Positions 2,969-12,338 of a stretch of 15,931 bases of DNA are shown piece by piece. Under the pieces are notes generated by a model, which was not told where the DNA came from, searched no databases, and saw only the letters and a list, made by a program, of their open reading frames with translations. Each line of letters starts with the position of its first letter. Positions within the stretch are counted from its first letter, which is position 1. The DNA is from Deinococcales bacterium. GTDB lineage: Bacteria > Deinococcota > Deinococci > Deinococcales > JAAFIG01. The stretch lies in assembly GCA_031418155.1 (NCBI GenBank), contig JANOWZ010000417.1, positions 1 to 15,931 of the forward strand. The letters run 5' to 3'. A program made the translations under genes and the position numbers.

Positions 2969-5119
2969 TCATCGCTTGCTGGCTTTAACCTCCCCGAGTG
3001 CGTTCTCGAGGTCGGATTGTGTTATCTCGAGGCTAATGCTTTCGTTGTCACCAGTTTCTTTCGTTGAATTAGGTATCGAGGCCACAATTGCGTTCTTGGC
3101 GAGGTGAGCTTGCAAGACCAGCATTGCCGCGCGTCGCACCAACCATTCGAGGTCGGCACCGCTCCAACCCTCTGTCTTTGCGGCCAGGGCATCCAGATTA
3201 AGCTCGCCAGCCGTCGCACGACCCCTCAAATGCACACCGAGGATTTCTGCCCGGTCCGATTCACTTGGCAATTTGAACTCGAGCACCTGTTCAAAGCGCC
3301 CAGGACGCAGTAAAGCCGGATCGAGCGATTCGGGCCGATTCGTTGCGCCCAAAATGATCACGTTCCCAAGACTCGAGATGCCATCCATTTCGGCCAGGAA
3401 TTGACCAATCACCCGGCTCGAGACGGCATCCGCATCGGCACGGTTCGCCAACAATGCGTCGATCTCGTCGAAGAAGACCACGCACGGGGCGCTGGCTCGG
3501 GCCTTGCGGAAGAGTTCGCGCACGGCCTTCTCGGACTCGCCGTAGTACCTCGAGAGAAATTGAGCACCACGCACGGCGATGAAATTCGCCTCGGATTCTT
3601 TGGCGACAGCCCGTGCCGTCAACGTCTTGCCGGTTCCGGGAGGACCCGCCAGCAAGATTCCACGCGGAGGCTCGAGCCGGAGTTGCGCGAACAATTCAGG
3701 GTGCTTGAGGGGAGCCTCGACCGCCTCGATCAATGCGGCTTTGACCTCAGACAAACCACCGATCTCCGTCCAACTCGCACCGGCAATATCGGATTCGGTC
3801 TCGCGGATCAAACTCGGTGAAACCTCACGCAGGGCTGCACGGAAATCCTCCACGCCAACCTCGAGTTGCAACATTTCCTGCGCACTCGGACCTCGACCTG
3901 AGGCCGTCCACGTTGGCAACTGTGAACGGACGCGGTGCATTCCAGCCTCTCGAGCCAAGGCCGCCAAATCCGCACCGACAAAGCCGTGTGTGATTCGCGC
4001 CAAGTCATCCAAATTCACGTCCGGCATCAATGGCATCGCCCGCGTGTGAACCTCAAGGATTTCGCGCCTGCCTTTTGCATCCGGCGGATTGATGACCACT
4101 TCGCGGTCAAACCGTCCGGGCCGACGCAAGGCCGGATCGAGGTTGTCCGGCAGGTTGGTCGCACCGATCACCACGACCTGACCGCGCCCGCCGAGGCCAT
4201 CCATCAACGAGAGGAGTTGCGCAACGACACGCTTCTCGACCTCGCCCTGAACCTCAGAACGCTTCGGACCAATCGCGTCGATCTCGTCCAAGAAAATAAT
4301 GCTCGGGGCTTTCGCTCGAGCCTCCTGAAAAATTTCGCGCAAACGCTTTTCCGAATCCCCATAAAACTTGCCAATGATTTCCGGGCCAGCCACCGAAATG
4401 AAATGCGCCCGTGTCTCACGCGCCACGGCTCGAGCAATCGTGGTCTTGCCGGTTCCGGGCGGGCCGTACAACAACACCCCTTTCGGAGGATCGATTCCCA
4501 ACTGCTCGAACACCTGCGGATAACGCAATGGCAACTCGACCAACTCGCGGACTCGAGCAACCTCACGCGATAAACCGCCGATGTCCTCGTAGCTTGCGCT
4601 CGAAGAAGATTGGGCTGGAGCTTGCGCCTCGCCGGAATTCTCGAGCGCCAAACGCGACTCGCCTCCGACCAACGCATGCGATCCAGGCTCGATGGATTTC
4701 ACCCGCAACTCCAATACCTTCGAGCCGAACAACTCCACGCGAACCCGATCACCCGCCGTCAACGCACGGTCCTGCAACAACGTCTTCAAATCCGAGATTG
4801 CCACGCCCGCACCAGAAATCACCTCGAGCACCACGCTCCGTGCCAAGACCGGCTCGAGTCTTGCAACACGCACTTTCGCACCGATGCTCGAACCCGCATT
4901 TTCTCGGGCCAAACCATCCAGCAACACGCCACGATCACGGTCCTCGGGTCTGGACGGCAACGCACGAACCGCCGTGCTGCGCTCACCCGTGACGACAATC
5001 ACACCACCGGCACGCACGCCCAAACGCTCGAGGTCGGCAGGGGACAGGCGGGCGAGGCCACGGCCCGCATCACGCGGCGCGGCCTCGGCGACGACGATCT
5101 CGAGGGCATCGATTACCAT
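2969..5119 (-). CDS. CDC48/VAT/p97-like AAA+ ATPase (N-domain plus two AAA modules)
   Basis: A CDC48-type N-domain ([21 protein letters not shown]) is followed by two complete AAA cassettes. D1 has [16 protein letters not shown] and [23 protein letters not shown]2 has [18 protein letters not shown] and [21 protein letters not shown]. The ORF track begins at a TTG (5131). The first ATG is at 5119. Confidence 0.85.
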
Positions 5120-5233
5120 GTTGGGTTCCAATTGCGGTTCTGTCGTAGGGGCATCGTGTAATGCACGCTGTTGCGTGACGCATGCCTCGCCCCTACATTC
5201 GCGTTCGCCGAATCAACAACTTGCATCAAACCC

Positions 5234-5725
5234 TCAACCCGCGAACGGAACCATCAACTCGAGGATTCCGTTCTGATAAGACTTCGTGAATTCACCTTTG
5301 ACGGCTTTGGAAAGCTCGAGCGTCTTCGCGTACTTGCGTGCCGCTGCACCGTTCGCTTCAAGCTTCAAGGTTTGTCCCTCGAGCGTGACTTGAATGCTGC
5401 TTTCAACCGCGCCTGGAAGTTCGGCAATCACGCTGTAATGTCCGGTTTCCTCTAGCACGTCAACCATCGGTTCGCGCACGGGTTCGACGCTGGGGTTGCC
5501 ACCGTTGTTCGCCATGTTGCCGAATGTGGAGACGGTCGGTTCACCATTTAAGTTCGTGCGAATGTTGACCCCGATCACACCCTCGAGTCCAGATTTTGTC
5601 GTGAAATTCTGCGTGCCGCCTTCAGCGTTTCCCGCCTGTTTTTGCAATTCTTGAACGACCTCGAGAAGATTGTTGATACCGGAAAAAATTCCGCCAAGTC
5701 CGCTGTTGTCGTTGGTTTTCGCCAT
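5234..5725 (-). CDS. Hsp20/alpha-crystallin family small heat-shock protein (GvpH-like)
   Basis: The alpha-crystallin domain is recognisable: VDVLEETGHYSVIAELPGAVESSIQVTLEGQTLKLEA ... KSYQNGILELMVP. An AGGAGA ribosome-binding site lies about 9 nt upstream of the ATG. The N-terminal region is Gly/Asn-rich. Confidence 0.75.
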   Translation of the reverse strand: MAKTNDNSGLGGIFSGINNLLEVVQELQKQAGNAEGGTQNFTTKSGLEGVIGVNIRTNLNGEPTVSTFGNMANNGGNPSVEPVREPMVDVLEETGHYSVIAELPGAVESSIQVTLEGQTLKLEANGAAARKYAKTLELSKAVKGEFTKSYQNGILELMVPFAG

Positions 5726-5830: not shown

Positions 5831-6121
5831 TCAGTACTCGAGCACCATTGATCCGCCTGATCCCATCGACCCCCGCTTTGGTGCGACCCGAGGGGAAATC
5901 ACTTCGGTTTCGTTTTGCAATTCAATGATTCGCGCTTCAAGTTTCGCCAGCGTTTTTTCACCGTCACTCACGCGCTGCCGCCAGTCGGCCAATCCTCGCT
6001 CGAGGCGCTTGCGTTCGGCGGTGAGTTGGTAGATTTGCAGGTACGTGCGGCTTTCAGATTTGGGCAAGGCCGAACGTCGCAAGCTCGAGGGTGCCAAAGC
6101 AGTTTTGCGTGGGGTGGTCAT
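5831..6121 (-). CDS. Hypothetical small protein (96 aa, basic N-terminus, predicted coiled-coil), gvp-operon member of unknown family
   Basis: A strong AAGGAG ribosome-binding site sits 7 nt upstream of the ATG. Its position between gvpN and hsp20 is consistent with operon membership. No family is recognisable by eye. Confidence 0.55.
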   Translation of the reverse strand: MTTPRKTALAPSSLRRSALPKSESRTYLQIYQLTAERKRLERGLADWRQRVSDGEKTLAKLEARIIELQNETEVISPRVAPKRGSMGSGGSMVLEY

Positions 6122-6137: not shown

Positions 6138-6229
6138 AGAGGAAAGTAAAAGCAGAGAAAAGAGGAAAGTAAGTTCAGATCAAGGTTTTAGGCTGTTACT
6201 TTCCTCTTTTCTCTTTAATCTTTCCTCTT
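6138..6229 (-). terminator. Long hairpin (perfect 19 bp stem AGAGAAAAGAGGAAAGTAA / TTACTTTCCTCTTTTCTCT, about 23 nt loop) immediately downstream of gvpN; possible intrinsic terminator or attenuator
   Basis: The perfect inverted repeat lies at 6154..6172 and 6196..6214. The outer flanks extend it to about 35 bp imperfect. On the minus-strand transcript it is followed by GCUUUUACUUUCC. Confidence 0.45.
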
Positions 6230-6235
6230 GTTTTT

Positions 6236-7240
6236 TTACAACGTCATGGCGCGTGATGGTTTGCGTTCACCACCGGCAAGCACGGGCTCGCGGATCTCGA
6301 GGATTTCCGTGCGTTCTGCTGTACGCTCGAGTGGTTTGATGGTGCGGGCTTTCGGCAAGAGGTGCAGCATTTTGGCAACCGCTTGGCTCGAGACGGTATG
6401 GCGTTCGTGTTCGTCGCTGATGCTGCCGGTCAGGACATCCAAAACCACGCGCTCGAACTCAAGGTTTCCGGCGCTGACTTCAAGGTTGCGGACGCTGGCT
6501 ACTCGAGCGATTTGCAGTGCGGCGCGAACGCTGTGTTTGATTTTCAGTTTGCTTTCGCCACGCACGCTGGCGACCAGTTCGGTGATGGCGAGCGCATCTT
6601 CGAGTTGCAATCCTGATCGGGCGGCAACAATTCCGCCTTGCGTCTCGAGGTCGAATCCCTCTAAACGCATGGTCACTAGGCGATCACGCAAGGCTTCTTG
6701 CGCGAGGTGCACTCCGGCGTAATCTTCCGGGTTGCTGGTGAAAATCGCTCGGAAGTCCGGGTGAACTTTCATGTACCCGCCCTTGCCCGCCGCGCTCGGG
6801 TAGATCAAAATACCTTCCTCGAGCACCGGCAACAGGACGTTGTTCGCTTCGGCTTTGGAGCGTGTGAACTCGTCATAAACGAGCGTGTAACCGTTCTTGC
6901 AGGCAATCGTCAGTCGTTCATCGACCCAGGAATTGCTGGAATCTTCGTCCACTTTCAAAACGCTGTGGATGTAGTTGTCCACGACTTTGCGGCGGCGAAA
7001 TCCGTTGTTCGCGCCCAGCAAATTGCTGGAACCAAACTCGTTGTCACCGGCGATCAGCACCATCGGGCGGCCCAGTTTCGTGGCGACATGCAACGCGAGT
7101 GTGGTTTTTCCGGTGCCGCTCGCGCCTTCAAAGTTCACGCCGAGGCCAGCCTCGAGATATCCCAAAGCGCGTTTGGTCAGGTCTTTGACCTGCGCGGTTT
7201 CAACGAAATCTTCGCGCTGTTTGGTGCTGATTTGACTCAT
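6236..7240 (-). CDS. gvpN: Gas vesicle protein GvpN (MoxR-like AAA+ ATPase)
   Basis: FVETAQVKDLTKRALGYLEAGLGVNFEGASGTGKTTLALHVATKLGRPMVLIAGDNEF matches the conserved GvpN N-terminus and Walker A closely. Walker B VYDEFTRS is present. The ATG overlaps the upstream stop (ATGA at 7237..7240). Confidence 0.9.
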   Translation of the reverse strand: MSQISTKQREDFVETAQVKDLTKRALGYLEAGLGVNFEGASGTGKTTLALHVATKLGRPMVLIAGDNEFGSSNLLGANNGFRRRKVVDNYIHSVLKVDEDSSNSWVDERLTIACKNGYTLVYDEFTRSKAEANNVLLPVLEEGILIYPSAAGKGGYMKVHPDFRAIFTSNPEDYAGVHLAQEALRDRLVTMRLEGFDLETQGGIVAARSGLQLEDALAITELVASVRGESKLKIKHSVRAALQIARVASVRNLEVSAGNLEFERVVLDVLTGSISDEHERHTVSSQAVAKMLHLLPKARTIKPLERTAERTEILEIREPVLAGGERKPSRAMTL

Positions 7241-7983
7241 GCGCCACTCGAGACGTAACCGTTATCGGAAAGTTTGATTTTGCCGCTGGCGACAAGGCGT
7301 TTGAGCATCGTGGCAACTTCGCTTTGATCGAGTTTCAAGCCTTGTGCGAGGTCCTCGAGTGACAATCCTGGAACGCTCGAGATGGTGCGCAAGACGATGT
7401 GCTCGCGGCGTTTCTCGACTGGGTTCAGCACGGCAACGCCGACGGAAAGAGCGCCCTGCGGCATTGGTTTGGCGGCAGGCTTGCTGGCTGGACGGGCCGC
7501 ACGCACGACTGGTTTGACATCCGATCCGCGCATTTGACGGGCGAATCCCTCGAGTTGTTCACGCATGACCGCACGTGCGGTGGCGTGAGCCTCGAGCAAT
7601 TGACCTGTTTCGGCACTGAGCGTTTCGCGTTCACTGGCGCGTTTGCTGGCATCACGGCGGGCGCTCGAGATTCGTTTTGCACCTTGAGCGGCAAGTGTTT
7701 CTTGCACCGTGGCTTTGCGTTGGTTGTTTTCGTGTGCGCGATCAGTTGCGCGTTGAGCGCCCTGGGTGCTGCGAATCTCCGCGATAATCTCGAGCTTCGC
7801 ATGAACGGCTTGCGCTTGGGTTGCAACCTCGTTTGCACGGGCGATGTGTTCAACGGCGCGGATGGTACTTGCCGCCACGAATTCTTCGCGGCGTTCCTGA
7901 TCAAAATTCAGGCGGTCGCTGGCGGATTTGTTCAGTTTCTCGCGCAGTGCGGCTCCAGCCTGGTCATCTAATGTCATCGGCAT
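7237..7983 (-). CDS. Hypothetical coiled-coil protein with KPAAKP-type linker and C-terminal winged-helix-like domain; gene directly downstream of gvpA (possible GvpC-like structural or regulatory role)
   Basis: It is Ala/Glu/Arg/Gln-rich and predicted helical over roughly the first 150 aa. A VKPVVRAARPASKPAAKPMP linker follows. The C-terminus HIVLRTISSVPGLSLEDLAQGLKLDQSEVATMLKRLVASGKIKLSDNGYV resembles a winged-helix (LexA/ArsR-like) fold. The ribosome-binding site is AAAGGTGA. Confidence 0.55.
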   Translation of the reverse strand: MPMTLDDQAGAALREKLNKSASDRLNFDQERREEFVAASTIRAVEHIARANEVATQAQAVHAKLEIIAEIRSTQGAQRATDRAHENNQRKATVQETLAAQGAKRISSARRDASKRASERETLSAETGQLLEAHATARAVMREQLEGFARQMRGSDVKPVVRAARPASKPAAKPMPQGALSVGVAVLNPVEKRREHIVLRTISSVPGLSLEDLAQGLKLDQSEVATMLKRLVASGKIKLSDNGYVSSGA

Positions 7984-8087
7984 GATTTCACCTTTTTGGA
8001 TGTGTCATTGGGTACTGGATGGATACGGGATATGGTTATCGAATAGGGCTTGAACTCGAGGTTTGGGCGGTAGGTGAGGTGTTGAGG

Positions 8088-8118
8088 CTTTTACTTTCCT
8101 CTTTTCTCTTTCCTCTCG
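8088..8118 (-). repeat. Second copy of the purine-rich intergenic element (19-mer TTACTTTCCTCTTTTCTCT identical to 6196..6214) in the gvpA-downstream intergenic region
   Basis: There is an exact 19 nt match to the gvpN-downstream hairpin arm, with similar flanks (GGCTnTTACTTTCCTCTTTTCTCTTT..CCTCT). On the sense (minus) strand it reads GAGAGGAAAGAGAAAAGAGGAAAGTAAAAGCC. Confidence 0.6.
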
Positions 8119-8164
8119 CCCCCAAGCAATTCGGGCGGGCCGAGCGTGATGCCCGACCCACCCG

Positions 8165-8180
8165 CAAGACCTGTGTCTTG
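8165..8180 (-). terminator. Small hairpin CAAGACctgtGTCTTG 17 nt downstream of the gvpA stop, followed by a second GC-rich stem (CGGGC...GCCCG); possible partial terminator or attenuator after gvpA
   Basis: There is a perfect 6 bp inverted repeat with a 4 nt loop. No U-tract follows, so termination is uncertain. Confidence 0.25.
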
Positions 8181-8196
8181 GCCTGAATCTAAAAGA

Positions 8197-8415
8197 TCAG
8201 ACTGCTGGTGCGGCGACCGTCGAGGTCAAACCGATGGCTTCGGCGTACTTCAAGTACGTCTCGACCGATGCAGCAACGACGCGGGCTTCGATGGCGATCA
8301 ATTCGATGCCGACCAGTGAGACGCGGGCGAATGCGTCGATGACGATGCCTTTGTCCAGGATGCGGTCCACAACTTCGCCGAGGCTCGAGGAGTTCATGCT
8401 TTTTTCGACTGCCAT
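8197..8415 (-). CDS. gvpA: Gas vesicle structural protein GvpA
   Basis: [64 protein letters not shown] is a near-consensus GvpA (72 aa). The ATG at 8415 is preceded by a GGAGGT ribosome-binding site. The ORF-track entry 8197..8592 is an in-frame upstream extension with no support. Confidence 0.95.
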
Positions 8416-8840
8416 ATGTACCTCCGTAAAATTTGAATTCTTGGTTCTTGCCCAGGGATAAATGGGGCGATGTTGGGAAAAGAGGTTCAAGAATTCTTTT
8501 GGGTGTTTTTCCGGTTCTTGCCGGTGTGTGAATGGTGCACCCTCGAGCAAGGTTTGAGTAAGCCTCTTCTGGGTATTGGGTATACCCCCCATTTGGGTAT
8601 GCCCGTTTGGGGCTGGTCAAGTTGCGGTCTCGCGCCTACTTTGTTTGGACTCGGAACTGTGGCAAAACTTGTGTGATGCACAGTATTTGTGGGTTCCGCT
8701 ACAGTTTGGTGGTTTGAAAGAATTTTGCAAGAGATGGTTCGGCAAACTGAAGCTCTGGCAAGGGCGAAAAGTTGAACAGGGCTTCTACAAGTTCAGGCCG
8801 ATAAGTTCCAGGCCAGCAGCACAACGAAAGGGGGCGTGAG
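8416..8840. promoter_or_regulatory. About 425 bp divergent regulatory region between gvpA (-) and the acidic E2-like gene (+)
   Basis: It holds no convincing ORF. It contains the GGGTATACCC palindrome plus two more GGGTAT half-sites (about 8570..8606), direct repeats GGTTCTTGCC (8443..8452 and 8513..8522) each near GAATTCTT, and TTGAAC hexamers on both divergent sense strands. Confidence 0.5.
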
Positions 8841-10661
8841 TTGAGTACACGAGGATTCGGCGACACAGACTGGACCGACGGGTTTTCTCGACCGTGGGAT
8901 GTTTCCGTGGCATCATTTGAAGCCATCGAAACCGACCTGGACGAGTTGATCGACCCGGACGGGATCGAGTCTGCATTGGCCATCGACGATCAGGGGAATT
9001 TCCTCGCCTGGATGGATTCGGAACGCGGGATGGCTCCAGTGCCGCTCGCGGCTTCAGAGTTCGAGGCTCCGGTGGCGCAAGATTTGAACGCGCCAGCGGC
9101 GAAAGTGTCTAAGGGTTTCAAACGGTTCACGCCGCCAGTTCCGGTGGTTGAGCCCAGCGAACCGACGACCTATCAGGCCAGCAGCGAGGCGATTGATGCG
9201 GTGTTTGCCGAACTCGAGGCGAGCGCCAAAGCCAGCACAGAACAGTCAGATGCACCCGAGGTTGAGGCGCAGGCAGATGTTCAGGTTCAGGCCGATTCGG
9301 ACATTTATGCTGAGGTCCATTCTGAAGATCAAGACGATCAGGGTGCGGTTGAAGCAAAGGCCAAGAAGCCAAAAATTGATCCGATGGCGCTCGAGGATGC
9401 GTTCGAGAGTGTGCCGTTTGACCTTCCAGAGTTGATGGGCGAACAGTCTGGCACTGTACTCAGTGAGCAACCTGTCGCGCTCGAGGGTGAAGCGGAGGCG
9501 GTCGAAGCTCAGGCAGAAGTTGAACTCCCAGCAGTTGAAGCTCAGGCAGAAGTGGTCGAGGTTGAAGTTCCAGCAATCGAAGCTCAGGTTGAAGTTGTTG
9601 AGGCCGAAGCAATTGTCATTCCCGAGGGCGAACCGGTCGAACCCGTCGCCGCCTGGAAGAAGCCCGTCAAACCCAAAAAGCAACCCAGCGAATTTGGCAT
9701 CGACGAAGTTCCACTCGAAGCGCTGCTCGAGATTGCGAATACCGAGGCCGAAGACGAAGAGAATCATGCCGAGGCCGAAGCCGTCACGATTGACCTGCAA
9801 CCCGAGGCGGATGCGCTTGCCGCAGTTGGCTTGGGCGAAGCAAGCCTTCAGGAAGGCATCATGGCCGCTTACGAGATGGAGGGTGCGCCAATCACCGATT
9901 TGAGCGCATTGATCGAGAGCAGCAAAGCACTCGAGGTTTCAACCGCCCGTGAAGCGGTCAACGAACCGGTCGCCACACCCGTTCATGCCGGATTTGTTGC
10001 TACTGCTGAAAGCAATGAATCGCCAGAGGCCGTGCTCCAGGCGCTCGAGACCAGCGTGCTCGGATTTGAAACACCAGAGATTCAACCGCTCGATGCAGAA
10101 CTCGAAACGGATTCCAGCGTCGCGGCAGTGCTGGCCCCAGAAATCATGAATGTCCCGATGATGCCCGCGACGACCACGTTGCGCCGTCACTTCGACGCGA
10201 CCGACCTGATCGAAGCGCAGATTCGTTTGCGTCACGCACTGCGCCCATTGGACGTTTCGATGGTCTCGCTCTTGGGTCGCGCCGCCGAACGTTGCGCCCT
10301 CGAGTTGCCGGGAATCAAAACGATTGCACTCGCCGAACTCGGCGACAATGGGATTGCAGTCACCGCCAAGATCAAAGCCGTCGAAAGCTTCCGCGAGATG
10401 CTTGCGGGCATCAGCGAGGGCTCGAGCGGCGTTCGTGGCGACCTGAGCGTCGTTGACATCAGCGACCTCGGCTTGGATGAAGTGGTCTTGCCACTCGCCG
10501 GACCGCACCTCTTGCTGACCCGTCTTTCGCCACACCCGGACAAACCGGGTCGCATGCGCGGCACGGTCTCTCTCTCTGGCCTCGTGAACCTTCGCGCTGG
10601 CGCATCATTCCTCGATCAGGTCGTCTCGAAACTCGAGGCTCCGATCACGCTGATGGTCTGA
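8841..10661 (+). CDS. Acidic tandem-repeat protein with a C-terminal 2-oxoacid dehydrogenase E2 acyltransferase (CAT-like) catalytic-domain homologue lacking the catalytic His/Asp
   Basis: A TTG start is preceded by an AAAGGGGG ribosome-binding site. The N-terminal roughly 430 aa are highly acidic and low-complexity with EAQAEV-type repeats. The C-terminal roughly 170 aa align to the E2 catalytic domain: RRHFDATDLIEAQIRLRH against HFDKTDITELEAFRK, VVDISDLGLDEV against FTISSIGGLG, and TVSLSGLVNLRAGASFLDQVVSKLEAP against ISLSFDHRVIDGADGARFI. In that alignment DHR is replaced by LVN. Confidence 0.7.
   Translation: MSTRGFGDTDWTDGFSRPWDVSVASFEAIETDLDELIDPDGIESALAIDDQGNFLAWMDSERGMAPVPLAASEFEAPVAQDLNAPAAKVSKGFKRFTPPVPVVEPSEPTTYQASSEAIDAVFAELEASAKASTEQSDAPEVEAQADVQVQADSDIYAEVHSEDQDDQGAVEAKAKKPKIDPMALEDAFESVPFDLPELMGEQSGTVLSEQPVALEGEAEAVEAQAEVELPAVEAQAEVVEVEVPAIEAQVEVVEAEAIVIPEGEPVEPVAAWKKPVKPKKQPSEFGIDEVPLEALLEIANTEAEDEENHAEAEAVTIDLQPEADALAAVGLGEASLQEGIMAAYEMEGAPITDLSALIESSKALEVSTAREAVNEPVATPVHAGFVATAESNESPEAVLQALETSVLGFETPEIQPLDAELETDSSVAAVLAPEIMNVPMMPATTTLRRHFDATDLIEAQIRLRHALRPLDVSMVSLLGRAAERCALELPGIKTIALAELGDNGIAVTAKIKAVESFREMLAGISEGSSGVRGDLSVVDISDLGLDEVVLPLAGPHLLLTRLSPHPDKPGRMRGTVSLSGLVNLRAGASFLDQVVSKLEAPITLMV
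9500..9620 (+). repeat. Imperfect tandem DNA repeat (about 3 units of 33 to 42 nt, core GAAGCTCAGGCAGAAGT) encoding VEAQAEV(V/E) repeats
   Basis: GAAGCTCAGG(C/T)(A/T)GAAGT recurs at about 9506, 9540 and 9582. Confidence 0.6.
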
Positions 10662-10689: not shown

Positions 10690-10758
10690 TGTGCTAGACG
10701 CGAACAAGAATTTCTCGAGCAATATTTTAAAAATTATCATGCAGTGGAAAGGAAACAT
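10690..10758 (+). promoter_or_regulatory. AT-rich segment (TTTCTCGAGCAATATTTTAAAAATTATCATG) upstream of the HD-GYP gene; candidate promoter
   Basis: The local AT-richness is unusual in a window of roughly 58% GC. It lies directly upstream of the GGAAAGGAAA ribosome-binding site and the ATG at 10759. No exact -35/-10 assignment is made. Confidence 0.3.
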
Positions 10759-11403
10759 ATGAGTGATCTCTTCAGAGACGGTTTCATTGACGAGATCGTT
10801 GATGCCTACGTCAAGGACTTCGGCGACCGCGTGGAAAACACCGACCGCTTCGAGCACTACTCCCCAGGACATGCCCGTCGTGTAGCCGAAACCAGCGTCG
10901 CCATCTGCGAAGGTTTGGATTTCGAGGAAGAAGACATTCGCGTCGTCAAAACCGCCGGGTTGCTCCACGACATCGGCGAGGTCATTCAAAAGCACGCCTT
11001 CTACGGCGCACCTCGAGTCTTGACCCCAGAAGAAACCGTTGAGATGTGGCAACACAGCCTGATCGGTGAACGCGAAGTGGCACGTCGCGGTTTTGGACGC
11101 AAAGAACAGTTGCTGGTGCGTTGGCATCACGAACGCTGGAACGGTCAGGGCTACCCGGACATGCTGTTCGGACCCGACTTGCCGCTCGGTGCTCGCATCA
11201 TCCGTTTGGCGGACACCTGGGATGCGCTGACAAACGACCGTCCGTGGCGTTTGGCGATGTCTGAAGCCGATGCGCTCGAGGAGATCAAACTCGGTGCAGG
11301 CATGGAGTTCGATCCAGAACTCGTCGGCTTGTTCCTCGAGTTGCACCAATGCGGAGCCTTGATCCCAAGTGAAAACTTCGCCATCTCAGGAGGCAAACGA
11401 TGA
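10759..11403 (+). CDS. HD-GYP domain protein (stand-alone cyclic-di-nucleotide phosphodiesterase-like)
   Basis: The HD motif (LLHDIGEV) and the HD-GYP signature WHHERWNGQGYPD are both present. The start is assigned to the ATG at 10759, 5 nt after the GGAAAGGAAA ribosome-binding site. The ORF track begins at a GTG at 10744. Confidence 0.8.
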   Translation: MSDLFRDGFIDEIVDAYVKDFGDRVENTDRFEHYSPGHARRVAETSVAICEGLDFEEEDIRVVKTAGLLHDIGEVIQKHAFYGAPRVLTPEETVEMWQHSLIGEREVARRGFGRKEQLLVRWHHERWNGQGYPDMLFGPDLPLGARIIRLADTWDALTNDRPWRLAMSEADALEEIKLGAGMEFDPELVGLFLELHQCGALIPSENFAISGGKR

Positions 11404-12338
11404 GTGGCGTCAAAGAATACGTCGGCGCAGAAGTCATGCTGCTCTCAAAAGTCCTCAAGCTCGAGAGTGTCGCCGTACCCTTCGGTGGACGCAACCCAAT
11501 GTGGCTCGGCTGGTGGATGAAGACTTTGGGCAAGAGCGTGCACATGAACGACCTGTTGCACTTTTCATACATGGACTCGGTCGGCCTGATCGAAAACGAA
11601 GGCTTCTTGTTGGACGGCGACACCCTCGGCGAACTGACCAAAGACATCGGCGACGGCAAGCAACTGACCAACCCAGAACTCGCCCGTCTCGTCCCAATGC
11701 AAGACGCATACTTCTTTGATCAACTTCGTCCACGCATCGAAAAACTGCCAGCCCGTCAAAAAGGTATCGCCATTCGAGCCGGATACAACACCATGCGATA
11801 CGCCCAAGTCATGGACTCCTCGAGATTCGTGAACCTGCGCGTCTCCCTCGACAAAGTCTTCGCCCGTGAAGTCGAAGAGATCAACAAGCGCATCACCTCG
11901 AGCGGCAAAGGCCAAGCGTACATGGAAGAGGCCGGAAGCTTCGTCGGCAACGTTCGCGCCAGCGCCCTGTACATGCAACTGCCAAGCATGGGCGGCTTCA
12001 GCACCGAATACGCTGCGGGCGCACGTCCACGCGGACCACTCGGACGCGAAATCTGGGCACGCGGCCCAAGCAAAACCTGGATGCCAGAACTGAAGGCCGC
12101 CACCAAAGGCACCTTCGGCGACCGCTTCACCTCACGCGAAGCGTACTTCAAAATGGTCTCGGAATTCCTCGAGAAAGCCAACGATTACCCAGTCTGGGTG
12201 TTCAACCTCGAAGAAAGCGAATACCCCGATGTCCTGCGTGCCGTGATGCAGTTCCGTAAGCCAAAAGCCGTGCATCGTTTTGACACACGCGAAGCGAGCG
12301 GCGGGTACATGAGCTACTTCTTGATCGCAGAGAAATAA
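11400..12338 (+). CDS. Dam-like (D12-class N6-adenine methyltransferase fold) protein with a non-canonical motif IV (MQLPS in place of DPPY); translationally coupled to the HD-GYP gene
   Basis: An ATGA overlap with the HD-GYP stop spans 11400..11403. Residue patterns parallel E. coli Dam: KEYVGAEVMLLSKVL against KWAGGKYPLLDDI, VPFGGR against PFVGAG, HMNDLLHFSYM against ADINSDLISLY, and RAGYNTMRYA against NRYGYNGLCRYN. The position expected for DPPY reads YMQLPSMGG. No [DNS]PP[YFW] occurs anywhere in the protein. Confidence 0.5.
   Translation: MSGVKEYVGAEVMLLSKVLKLESVAVPFGGRNPMWLGWWMKTLGKSVHMNDLLHFSYMDSVGLIENEGFLLDGDTLGELTKDIGDGKQLTNPELARLVPMQDAYFFDQLRPRIEKLPARQKGIAIRAGYNTMRYAQVMDSSRFVNLRVSLDKVFAREVEEINKRITSSGKGQAYMEEAGSFVGNVRASALYMQLPSMGGFSTEYAAGARPRGPLGREIWARGPSKTWMPELKAATKGTFGDRFTSREAYFKMVSEFLEKANDYPVWVFNLEESEYPDVLRAVMQFRKPKAVHRFDTREASGGYMSYFLIAEK

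Follow-up and report, generated by a model that had tools for sequence, protein, structure and literature searches.

A probable GvpC-type gas vesicle protein with cryptic 33-residue repeats and a C-terminal winged helix, encoded between gvpA and gvpN in a Deinococcales bacterium

Introduction

Which protein is made from the gene that lies between gvpA and gvpN in the gas vesicle cluster of a Deinococcales bacterium? The question is raised by a stretch of 15,931 nucleotides (nt) of contig JANOWZ010000417.1 (assembly GCA_031418155.1), called the window throughout, where the minus strand carries gvpA, downstream of it an open reading frame (ORF) of 248 amino acids (aa) that we call X, and after that gvpN. 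An earlier reading of the window, made from the letters alone and referred to here as the sequence-only reading, had put X at positions 7237-7983, directly 3' of gvpA, and these coordinates hold in the ORF list, with gvpA identified by the model NF006874. The same reading held X to be unlike GvpC, and offered three functions for it: a scaffold on the vesicle surface, a tether between vesicle and nucleoid, or a regulator of the operon that binds the GGGTAT sites. We find it quite probable, from what can be read out of the sequences and the predicted structures, that X is an outer gas vesicle protein of the GvpC type, though a highly divergent one, and we infer that it would bind and stiffen the shell.

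Gene order and distribution

A ribosome-binding site, AGGTGA, stands 7-12 nt before the ATG of X, and at the other end the stop of X and the start of gvpN share four nucleotides (ATGA), an overlap that suggests that the two genes may be translationally coupled. The overlap is found in L001, L002, L009, L011 and L012 as well. The order gvpA-X-gvpN is present in every locus with readable flanks (L001, L002/L007, L009, L011, L012 and L013) and is kept among homologues that are only 28-35% identical; for L008 it rests on the positions of the ORFs only. The cyanobacterial reference locus, L015, reads gvpA-gvpA-gvpC-gvpN. The order gvpA-X-gvpN mirrors the cyanobacterial gvpA-gvpC-gvpN, and the position and the putative coupling of X match those of a structural GvpC.

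X belongs to a small family. A word-index search gave ten relatives, all of them close (85-99% identical), and an exhaustive search with a hidden Markov model through 1.84 billion cluster representatives matched 9 clusters, eight of which align over nearly the full length of X while the ninth (P0012, 197 aa) is without the N-terminal part. A first scan of a genome collection, made with the alignment of close relatives, gave no confirmed locus, and a scan with a sub-alignment found two members in metagenome-assembled genomes (MAGs) of Deinococcales.

A long helix with one conserved face

AlphaFold2 predicts residues 5-152 of X to be a single unbroken helix, with a predicted local distance difference test (pLDDT) score above 90, followed by disorder at 155-183 and a winged helix of three helices and a beta-hairpin at 188-245. 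The same layout is predicted for P0018, a homologue from a Deinococcales MAG with 28% identity to X, where the helix spans 3-161, the disordered part 163-202 and the winged helix 208-265. The succession of helical domain, linker and winged helix given by the sequence-only reading is thus borne out by both models. When the whole of X was searched against the PDB by sequence nothing meaningful was found, and in the Pfam and NCBIfam scan the winged helix is the sole recognised domain.

The conservation along the helix is strongly periodic. Over residues 5-155 the spectrum peaks at 3.63 residues with a power of 71, where the permutations reach 29 at most, and the power is significant at 3.63-3.67 residues but little and not significant at 3.5. 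The conserved stripe, which is made of Arg, Leu and Ala, is therefore near-straight on an ordinary alpha-helix and is not the seam of a heptad coiled coil, and a canonical coiled coil is ruled out for this helix on the same comparison.

The length of the helix varies little. The only indels within it across the family are two insertions of seven residues, in P0018 (about 46-52) and P0013 (about 139-145), relative to residues 46 and 131 of X in the window. With seven residues, or some two turns of helix, added, the conserved face roughly keeps its orientation.

Hidden repeats of 33 residues

According to the sequence-only reading X has no 33-residue GvpC repeats, and a scan of the single sequence along its own diagonals with a BLOSUM matrix does show no significant repeat. 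At the level of profiles the result is another one. When the column profile of the divergent X alignment is compared with itself, the highest of 77 offsets is exactly 33, with a mean score of 0.32 over residues 56-156 against 0.21 for the 99th percentile of the permutation maximum. The other offsets that are compatible with the phase of the helix (11, 22, 44 and 55) all score -0.15 or lower, so the peak at 33 is not mere helical periodicity. When eight divergent members are tested one sequence at a time, without an alignment, six of them have offset 33 among the best three of the 77.

Comparisons with hhalign place the repeats, always at offset 33. Residues 60-103 against 93-136 score 39.3 with a probability of 96%, and 71-103 against 104-136 score 28.0 with a probability of 93.6% (shuffled targets 7.2±1.6). 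The weaker pair, 38-70 against 71-103, scores 16.8, with shuffled targets at 7.8±1.7 and 12.4 at most. Overall the column-shuffled controls lie at 7-8 (standard deviation about 1.6, maximum 14) and the reversed ones at 6.5-9.5. Residues 5-37 give no significant score against the repeats, and the N-terminal head is conserved (M1, L5, G10, L13, R14, L17, D/N18, S20 and R24) but not detectably a repeat.

The invariant arginines of the alignment, 71, 82, 104, 115 and 137, fall into the repeat units. R71 and R82 belong to the unit 71-103, where L97 is also present in 8 of 9 sequences; in the unit 104-136, R104, R115, R119 and T126 are invariant and accompanied by L129/L130; and the partial unit 137-152 has conserved R137, R141, L144 and F147. 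At the level of the family the helix of X carries three to four degenerate repeats of 33 residues, visible in the profile, which overturns the earlier statement. The features are collected in Table 1.

Table 1. X, its segments and the flanking elements, in positions of the window
Feature	Position	Strand	Basis
X, putatively GvpC-like, with C-terminal winged helix	7237..7983	-	ORF list; homologues 28-99% identical with the same architecture; AlphaFold2
X residues 1-37, conserved N-terminal head, helical	7873..7983	-	alignments, hhalign
X residues 38-70, weak 33-residue repeat	7774..7872	-	hhalign
X residues 71-103, clear 33-residue repeat	7675..7773	-	hhalign, profile offset test
X residues 104-136, clear 33-residue repeat	7576..7674	-	hhalign
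X residues 137-152, partial last repeat and end of the long helix	7528..7575	-	AlphaFold2, alignment
X residues 153-187, linker and lead-in to the winged helix	7423..7527	-	pLDDT 36-57, alignment
X residues 188-245, minimal winged helix	7249..7422	-	Pfam, Foldseek, PDB profile search
gvpN, AAA+ ATPase	6236..7240	-	TIGR02640, 313 bits
gvpA, 72 aa, shell protein, proposed partner of X	8197..8415	-	NF006874, 124 bits
Single GTACCCAAT half-site, ~25-30 nt before the ATG of X	8007..8015	-	window and close relative L001 only
14-bp G+C-rich RNA hairpin right after the gvpA stop	8132..8164	-	fold of 7984-8200
Palindromic GGGTAT/ATACCC candidate operator, ~156-185 nt before the gvpA ATG	8571..8600	.	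motif comparison of loci

Relationship to GvpC

In Anabaena GvpC nine positions of each 33-residue repeat (4, 11, 12, 15, 19, 23, 26, 30 and 33) form one conserved face, Arg19 and Leu12 are among the residues that are more than 90% conserved, and mutants of Arg19, Leu4/12/30 and Phe11/33 have been tested by collapse pressure (Huber et al., PMC9994262). One repeat, 49.5 Å long, covers four GvpA subunits (50.8 Å) along the rib, over helix alpha2 (PMC9994262), and Dutka et al. arrive at the same binding geometry (PMC10185304). For the comparison with X we used a small profile of GvpC repeats, built from the consensus in PMC9994262 and from retrieved cyanobacterial GvpCs. The bona fide GvpCs that were retrieved all carry the Pfam domain Gas_vesicle_C (PF01304).

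Aligned with this profile by hhalign, X gives a single ungapped alignment of 85 columns over residues 53-137, in which R71, R104 and R137 fall on Arg19 and L64, L97 and L130 on Leu12. The third repeat of X, QLLEAHATAR, can be set beside the cyanobacterial motif QFLSATAQAR. The score is 22.3 (P = 0.003). Reversed sequences reach about 8, shuffled profiles in which only the 33-residue period is preserved 9.0±1.7, and those in which the 11/3 phase is preserved as well 13.1±2.5; the best of these last 60 stays at 21.2, below the observed value. Conservation of X on the nine face positions is 2.33 against 0.75 elsewhere (p = 4e-5), a test which is partly circular as the register was chosen by score. 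The presumed partner is also very similar, since GvpA of the window is 79% identical to that of Dolichospermum and its stretch of ten residues in alpha2, where GvpC docks, is identical.

X thus shares with the GvpC of Anabaena and Dolichospermum the gene place between gvpA and gvpN, a long alpha-helical rod with a period of 33 residues and a single face of about 11/3 periodicity, a conserved Arg and Leu that come to lie on Arg19 and Leu12 in the best alignment, and a partner with a virtually identical alpha2. It differs in its degenerate repeats, of which two are strong and one or two weak, in a face richer in Arg, in its own conserved N-terminal head, and in the added basic linker and winged helix.

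Several observations weigh against X being a GvpC. PF01304 matches none of 11 members of the family at E<=10, and in Pfam and NCBIfam at that threshold no other Gvp model does, GvpO included, which rules out that X is GvpO or another Gvp protein with a family model. The strong repeats number only two. HH-suite gives the alignment with GvpC a probability of only about 11%, and homology is for this reason only suggestive. The second invariant arginine of the repeats (R82/R115) falls on GvpC Leu30, which makes the face of X more basic and less hydrophobic than that of the cyanobacterial protein, and why a shell protein should carry a winged helix is unexplained. It is possible that the likeness is a case of convergence on the lattice period of GvpA instead of common descent. 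Weighing this, we think that X is probably a very distant homologue of GvpC; at the least it would be an equivalent that arose by convergence on the same lattice. The cryptic repeats, the single conserved face and the coherent GvpC register make the surface-binding scaffold the best supported of the three functions that were first offered, and they contradict the exclusion of GvpC that went with it.

As a GvpC-type protein X would lie with its helix, some 148-150 residues or about 22 nm, along a rib of GvpA and across the exposed alpha2 helices, in analogy with Anabaena. The Arg, Leu and Ala face of the repeats would be turned towards the shell, with each repeat (33 x 1.5 Å = 49.5 Å) spanning four GvpA subunits (about 50.8 Å), and the whole helix may cover about 17 subunits if 1.5 Å per residue and 12.7 Å per GvpA are assumed. 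Rods bound to the ribs in this way would stiffen the shell, while the flexible basic linker may keep the winged helix away from it.

Linker and winged helix

The linker of X (residues 153-176) is disordered and rich in Pro and Ala, reads ...RAARPASKPAAKPMPQ..., and leads over a conserved G-A-L/M...P-V/M...RRRE to the winged helix. Across the family it is 21-57 aa long and rich in Pro and Ala, with a net charge of +3 to +7 in all members. The sequence-only reading had seen a KPAAKP linker with a histone-H1-like AKP/KPA stretch. The stretch is there in the window, where X has two AKP, KPA or PAK words, but it is not conserved: the linkers of the family hold 0-3 such words each, and most homologues lack those of the window. 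Only the positive charge is kept, and the linker is predicted to be a basic flexible tether without a histone-H1-like repeat array.

The same reading likened X to phasins of the PhaF type, and one could imagine that X ties the gas vesicle to the nucleoid in the manner of PhaF or PhaM, through the H1-like AKP stretch and the winged helix. The linker is indeed basic in every member, the winged helix could bind DNA non-specifically, and a shell-binding N-terminus would make the architecture tether-like. No phasin family of Pfam or NCBIfam matches X at E<=10, however, and the few unconserved AKP/KPA words stand against the many AKP-type repeats in tails of the PhaF and AlgP type; with neither a family match nor an extended AKP/KPAA tail, X is not a phasin. 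With PhaR, PhaF and PhaM of the polyhydroxyalkanoate (PHA) granules X has only a concept in common, namely that one protein combines surface binding with a region that is basic or binds DNA, while there is no relationship in sequence or family and no AKP array, and the organelle and the chemistry of binding differ. We know of no precedent for gas vesicles attached to the nucleoid. A tether of this kind we regard as very improbable, and the phasin comparison is reduced to a loose analogy of architecture.

The winged helix consists in the model of helices at 188-203, 209-216 and 220-233 and the beta-hairpin. Pfam gives MarR_2 (PF12802) at residues 192-236 with 27.2 bits, hardly above the cut-off of 27; MarR stays with 23.3 bits under its cut-off of 24.6, HTH_24 scores 20.6 bits, and a match of the MarR type is found in only 6 of 11 family members. 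The DNA-binding matches found with Foldseek in the PDB are CggR (root-mean-square deviation 0.8 Å over 59 residues), MarR, IclR and MntR, and besides them there are winged helices that do not bind DNA (the dimerisation domains of O-methyltransferases, RPA32C and SelB), all with E >= 1.9e-3. A search of the PDB with the profile of the domain puts Z-alpha first (7c0i, E = 6e-4), followed by SelB and MarR. Z-alpha domains keep an Asn and a Tyr in the recognition helix (ADAR1 residues N173 and Y177), but in the alignment with X the first of these columns varies and the second holds Lys, so membership of the Z-alpha family is ruled out.

Invariant in the domain are R192, R193, E194, G206, L212, L216, E222 and L230, and positions 199, 228, 229 and 235 are mostly basic, with an isoelectric point of 9.3 for the domain; the recognition helix is variable at 224/225, and the tip of the wing reads D-G/N-G. 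With small winged-helix regulators of the MarR type (MarR_2, CggR/SorC, IclR and MntR) X shares the fold of three helices and a beta-hairpin. It lacks the basic wing motif, its domain is C-terminal behind a rod of 150 residues, and the MarR dimerisation helices are missing in the models of both X and P0018, where disordered linker comes before the domain and only about three residues after it. The winged helix is generic, and the domain alone does not decide between binding of nucleic acid and docking of a protein.

For the GvpC-type protein that we favour, the winged helix would be an added module, most likely docking further components, for example GvpN (to which X seems translationally coupled), a neighbouring X, or nucleic acid. 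For a docking role haloarchaeal GvpC is a precedent. In Halobacterium salinarum GvpC the C-terminal zinc-finger domain has GvpN, O, F, H, I and L as binding partners, dimerises and mediates contacts between GvpC molecules (PMC9372576, PMC9501494). Both proteins have helical repeats in the N-terminal part and, at the C-terminus, a small globular domain whose fold class usually goes with nucleic-acid binding. The halobacterial protein differs in having 6-7 repeats of 32-40 aa, in being acidic and in carrying a zinc finger and not a winged helix, and the two are likened by description, not by sequence.

Palindromes upstream of gvpA

In the window GGGCATACCCAAATGGGGGGTATACCCAATACCC stands about 156-185 nt before the ATG of gvpA. 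Every locus that was compared has the core palindrome TACCCA-N2-TGGGTA between -108 and -198 relative to gvpA, also where X is only about 30% identical, and within loci of up to 20 kb it is essentially confined to this spot. The palindromes with this core, built from GGGTA/TACCC half-sites, lie at 9569-9629 in L002, 9511-9563 in L008, 4803-4841 in L012 and 700-738 in L011. In most of the other loci a second palindrome, CCCC-N4-GGGGCT, follows about 24 nt downstream of it. Among the conserved genes of the cluster the winged helix of X is the only recognisable domain of a DNA-binding type.

These sites allow for a protein with two functions, in which the rod of X would bind the vesicle while its winged helix recognises TACCCA-N2-TGGGTA as an operator at the promoter of gvpA. 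As long as it is free X would regulate the operon, and binding to the shell would titrate it away, so that the expression of gvpA and X would track the area of uncoated shell, as PhaR achieves for PHA granules. The conserved place of the palindrome, which is nearly unique within the loci, speaks for this, as does the fact that X holds the sole candidate DNA-binding domain of the conserved cluster; MarR, CggR, IclR, MntR and Z-alpha are among its best Pfam, fold and PDB matches, the residues R192, R193, E194 and E222 are invariant, and the basic positions and isoelectric point of the domain are joined to a linker that is always basic. Yet the sites are palindromic and X has no dimerisation element beside the winged helix, residues 224/225 vary while the DNA core is invariant, the wing tip is non-basic, the matches are all at or below the thresholds of the families, and the gene for the true regulator may lie at another place in the genome. 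We therefore take the dual function as possible but rather doubtful.

X could also be nothing but a regulator of the gvp operon, in which the long helix serves as a coiled-coil dimerisation or sensor domain and the vesicle carries no X. A role of this kind would suit the winged helix and the conserved operator, and also the annotations of the family, which are only 'MarR family' or 'hypothetical protein'. The stripe with its period of 3.63 is, on the other hand, not that of a canonical coiled coil at 3.5, the invariant positions are Arg and not the chemistry of a coiled-coil core, and a dimerisation rod has no reason to have 33-residue repeats that match the register of GvpC. A disordered linker of 21-57 residues would moreover uncouple the geometry of the dimer from the DNA-binding heads, and the position and coupling of the gene fit a structural GvpC. 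A pure regulator is in our opinion improbable.

A half-site, TACCCAA(T/A), is present 25-46 nt upstream of the start of X (about 46 nt in L001), only in the lineage of the window, where the spacer between gvpA and X is 213-221 nt long and thus exceeds the 49-182 nt of the other loci. The half-site may belong to a promoter or an operator within the operon.

Expression and neighbouring genes

The region between gvpA and X (7984-8200) folds with z = -3.27, no shuffled sequence folding equally well, and hairpins are found at the same place after gvpA in L002, L011 and L012. The usual stoichiometry of gas vesicles is high in GvpA and low in GvpC. The hairpin is likely a partial terminator or a stabiliser of the mRNA, which would set a low ratio of X to GvpA.

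Another element after gvpA (8082-8116) is rich in purines and about 35 nt long, with the sequence AGAGGAAAGAGAAAAGAGGAAAGTAAAAGCC on the gene strand, and it comes back after gvpN at 6187-6221 together with an inverted copy at 6138-6172, with which it forms a perfect inverted repeat of 19 bp. A similar hairpin, GAGGAAAGAGAAAAGG...CTCTTTCCTCTTTT, is present between gvpA and X in L008, a Deinococcales MAG (9852-10000). The element could be an RNA stabiliser, a terminator or a small repeat element.

After gvpN the cluster continues with a coiled-coil ORF of 96 aa, an Hsp20-like protein, a CDC48-type double AAA ATPase, three GvpF/L paralogues and GvpG, in this order. The 96-aa ORF (5831-6121, minus strand) follows gvpN directly and has no family match; L001, L008 and L012 have it too, L003 has a shorter version, and in L002 no such ORF was called. 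In position it presumably corresponds to gvpV in the Serratia order gvpA1-gvpC-gvpN-gvpV. Genes of chaperone type are unusually many: a GvpF/L with a C-terminal J-domain (DnaJ, 33 bits; 2008-2952), the CDC48-type ATPase (TIGR01243, 789 bits; 2969-5131) and the Hsp20-like protein (5234-5725), all on the minus strand. They recur at the same places in L001 and L002, where the gene at the Hsp20 position encodes a protein of 163 aa without a precomputed Pfam match.

Three genes on the plus strand diverge from gvpA (8841-10661, 10744-11403 and 11400-12338), and their position is kept in L001, L002, L008 and L012. The first encodes a very acidic protein of 606 aa with repeats rich in E, A and V, which like the 312-aa neighbour has no match in Pfam or the PDB; the second, of 219 aa, has an HD-GYP-like HD_5 domain. 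As a source of another regulator in the cluster these three were rejected, the 606-aa and 312-aa proteins being without matches and the 219-aa protein an HD_5 domain protein. In L001 and L002 a large HD-PAS-GAF signalling protein is encoded at the cluster's far end, and this hints at a second-messenger control of gas vesicle formation.

Conclusions

What is new here is best described as a rare variant of GvpC that combines cryptic 33-residue repeats, a basic linker and a winged helix. X would be a natural GvpC with a folded C-terminal domain on a flexible linker, in parallel with the zinc-finger domain of the haloarchaeal protein, and the analogy suggests that docking or regulatory domains may recur as a solution at the C-terminal end of GvpC. 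GvpC is the handle for engineering the mechanics of gas vesicles and for surface display in ultrasound reporters. If it is true that the winged helix binds the operator of gvpA, there would also be a feedback loop that senses structure, with the shell of an organelle controlling the expression of its own gene.

GvpC has been thought to be recognisable by its repeats. X indicates that a protein of the GvpC type can escape the Pfam model and still keep the period of 33 residues that is imposed by the lattice of GvpA, and this period, when looked for in profiles, may be a useful rule for spotting a seemingly missing GvpC in other clusters.

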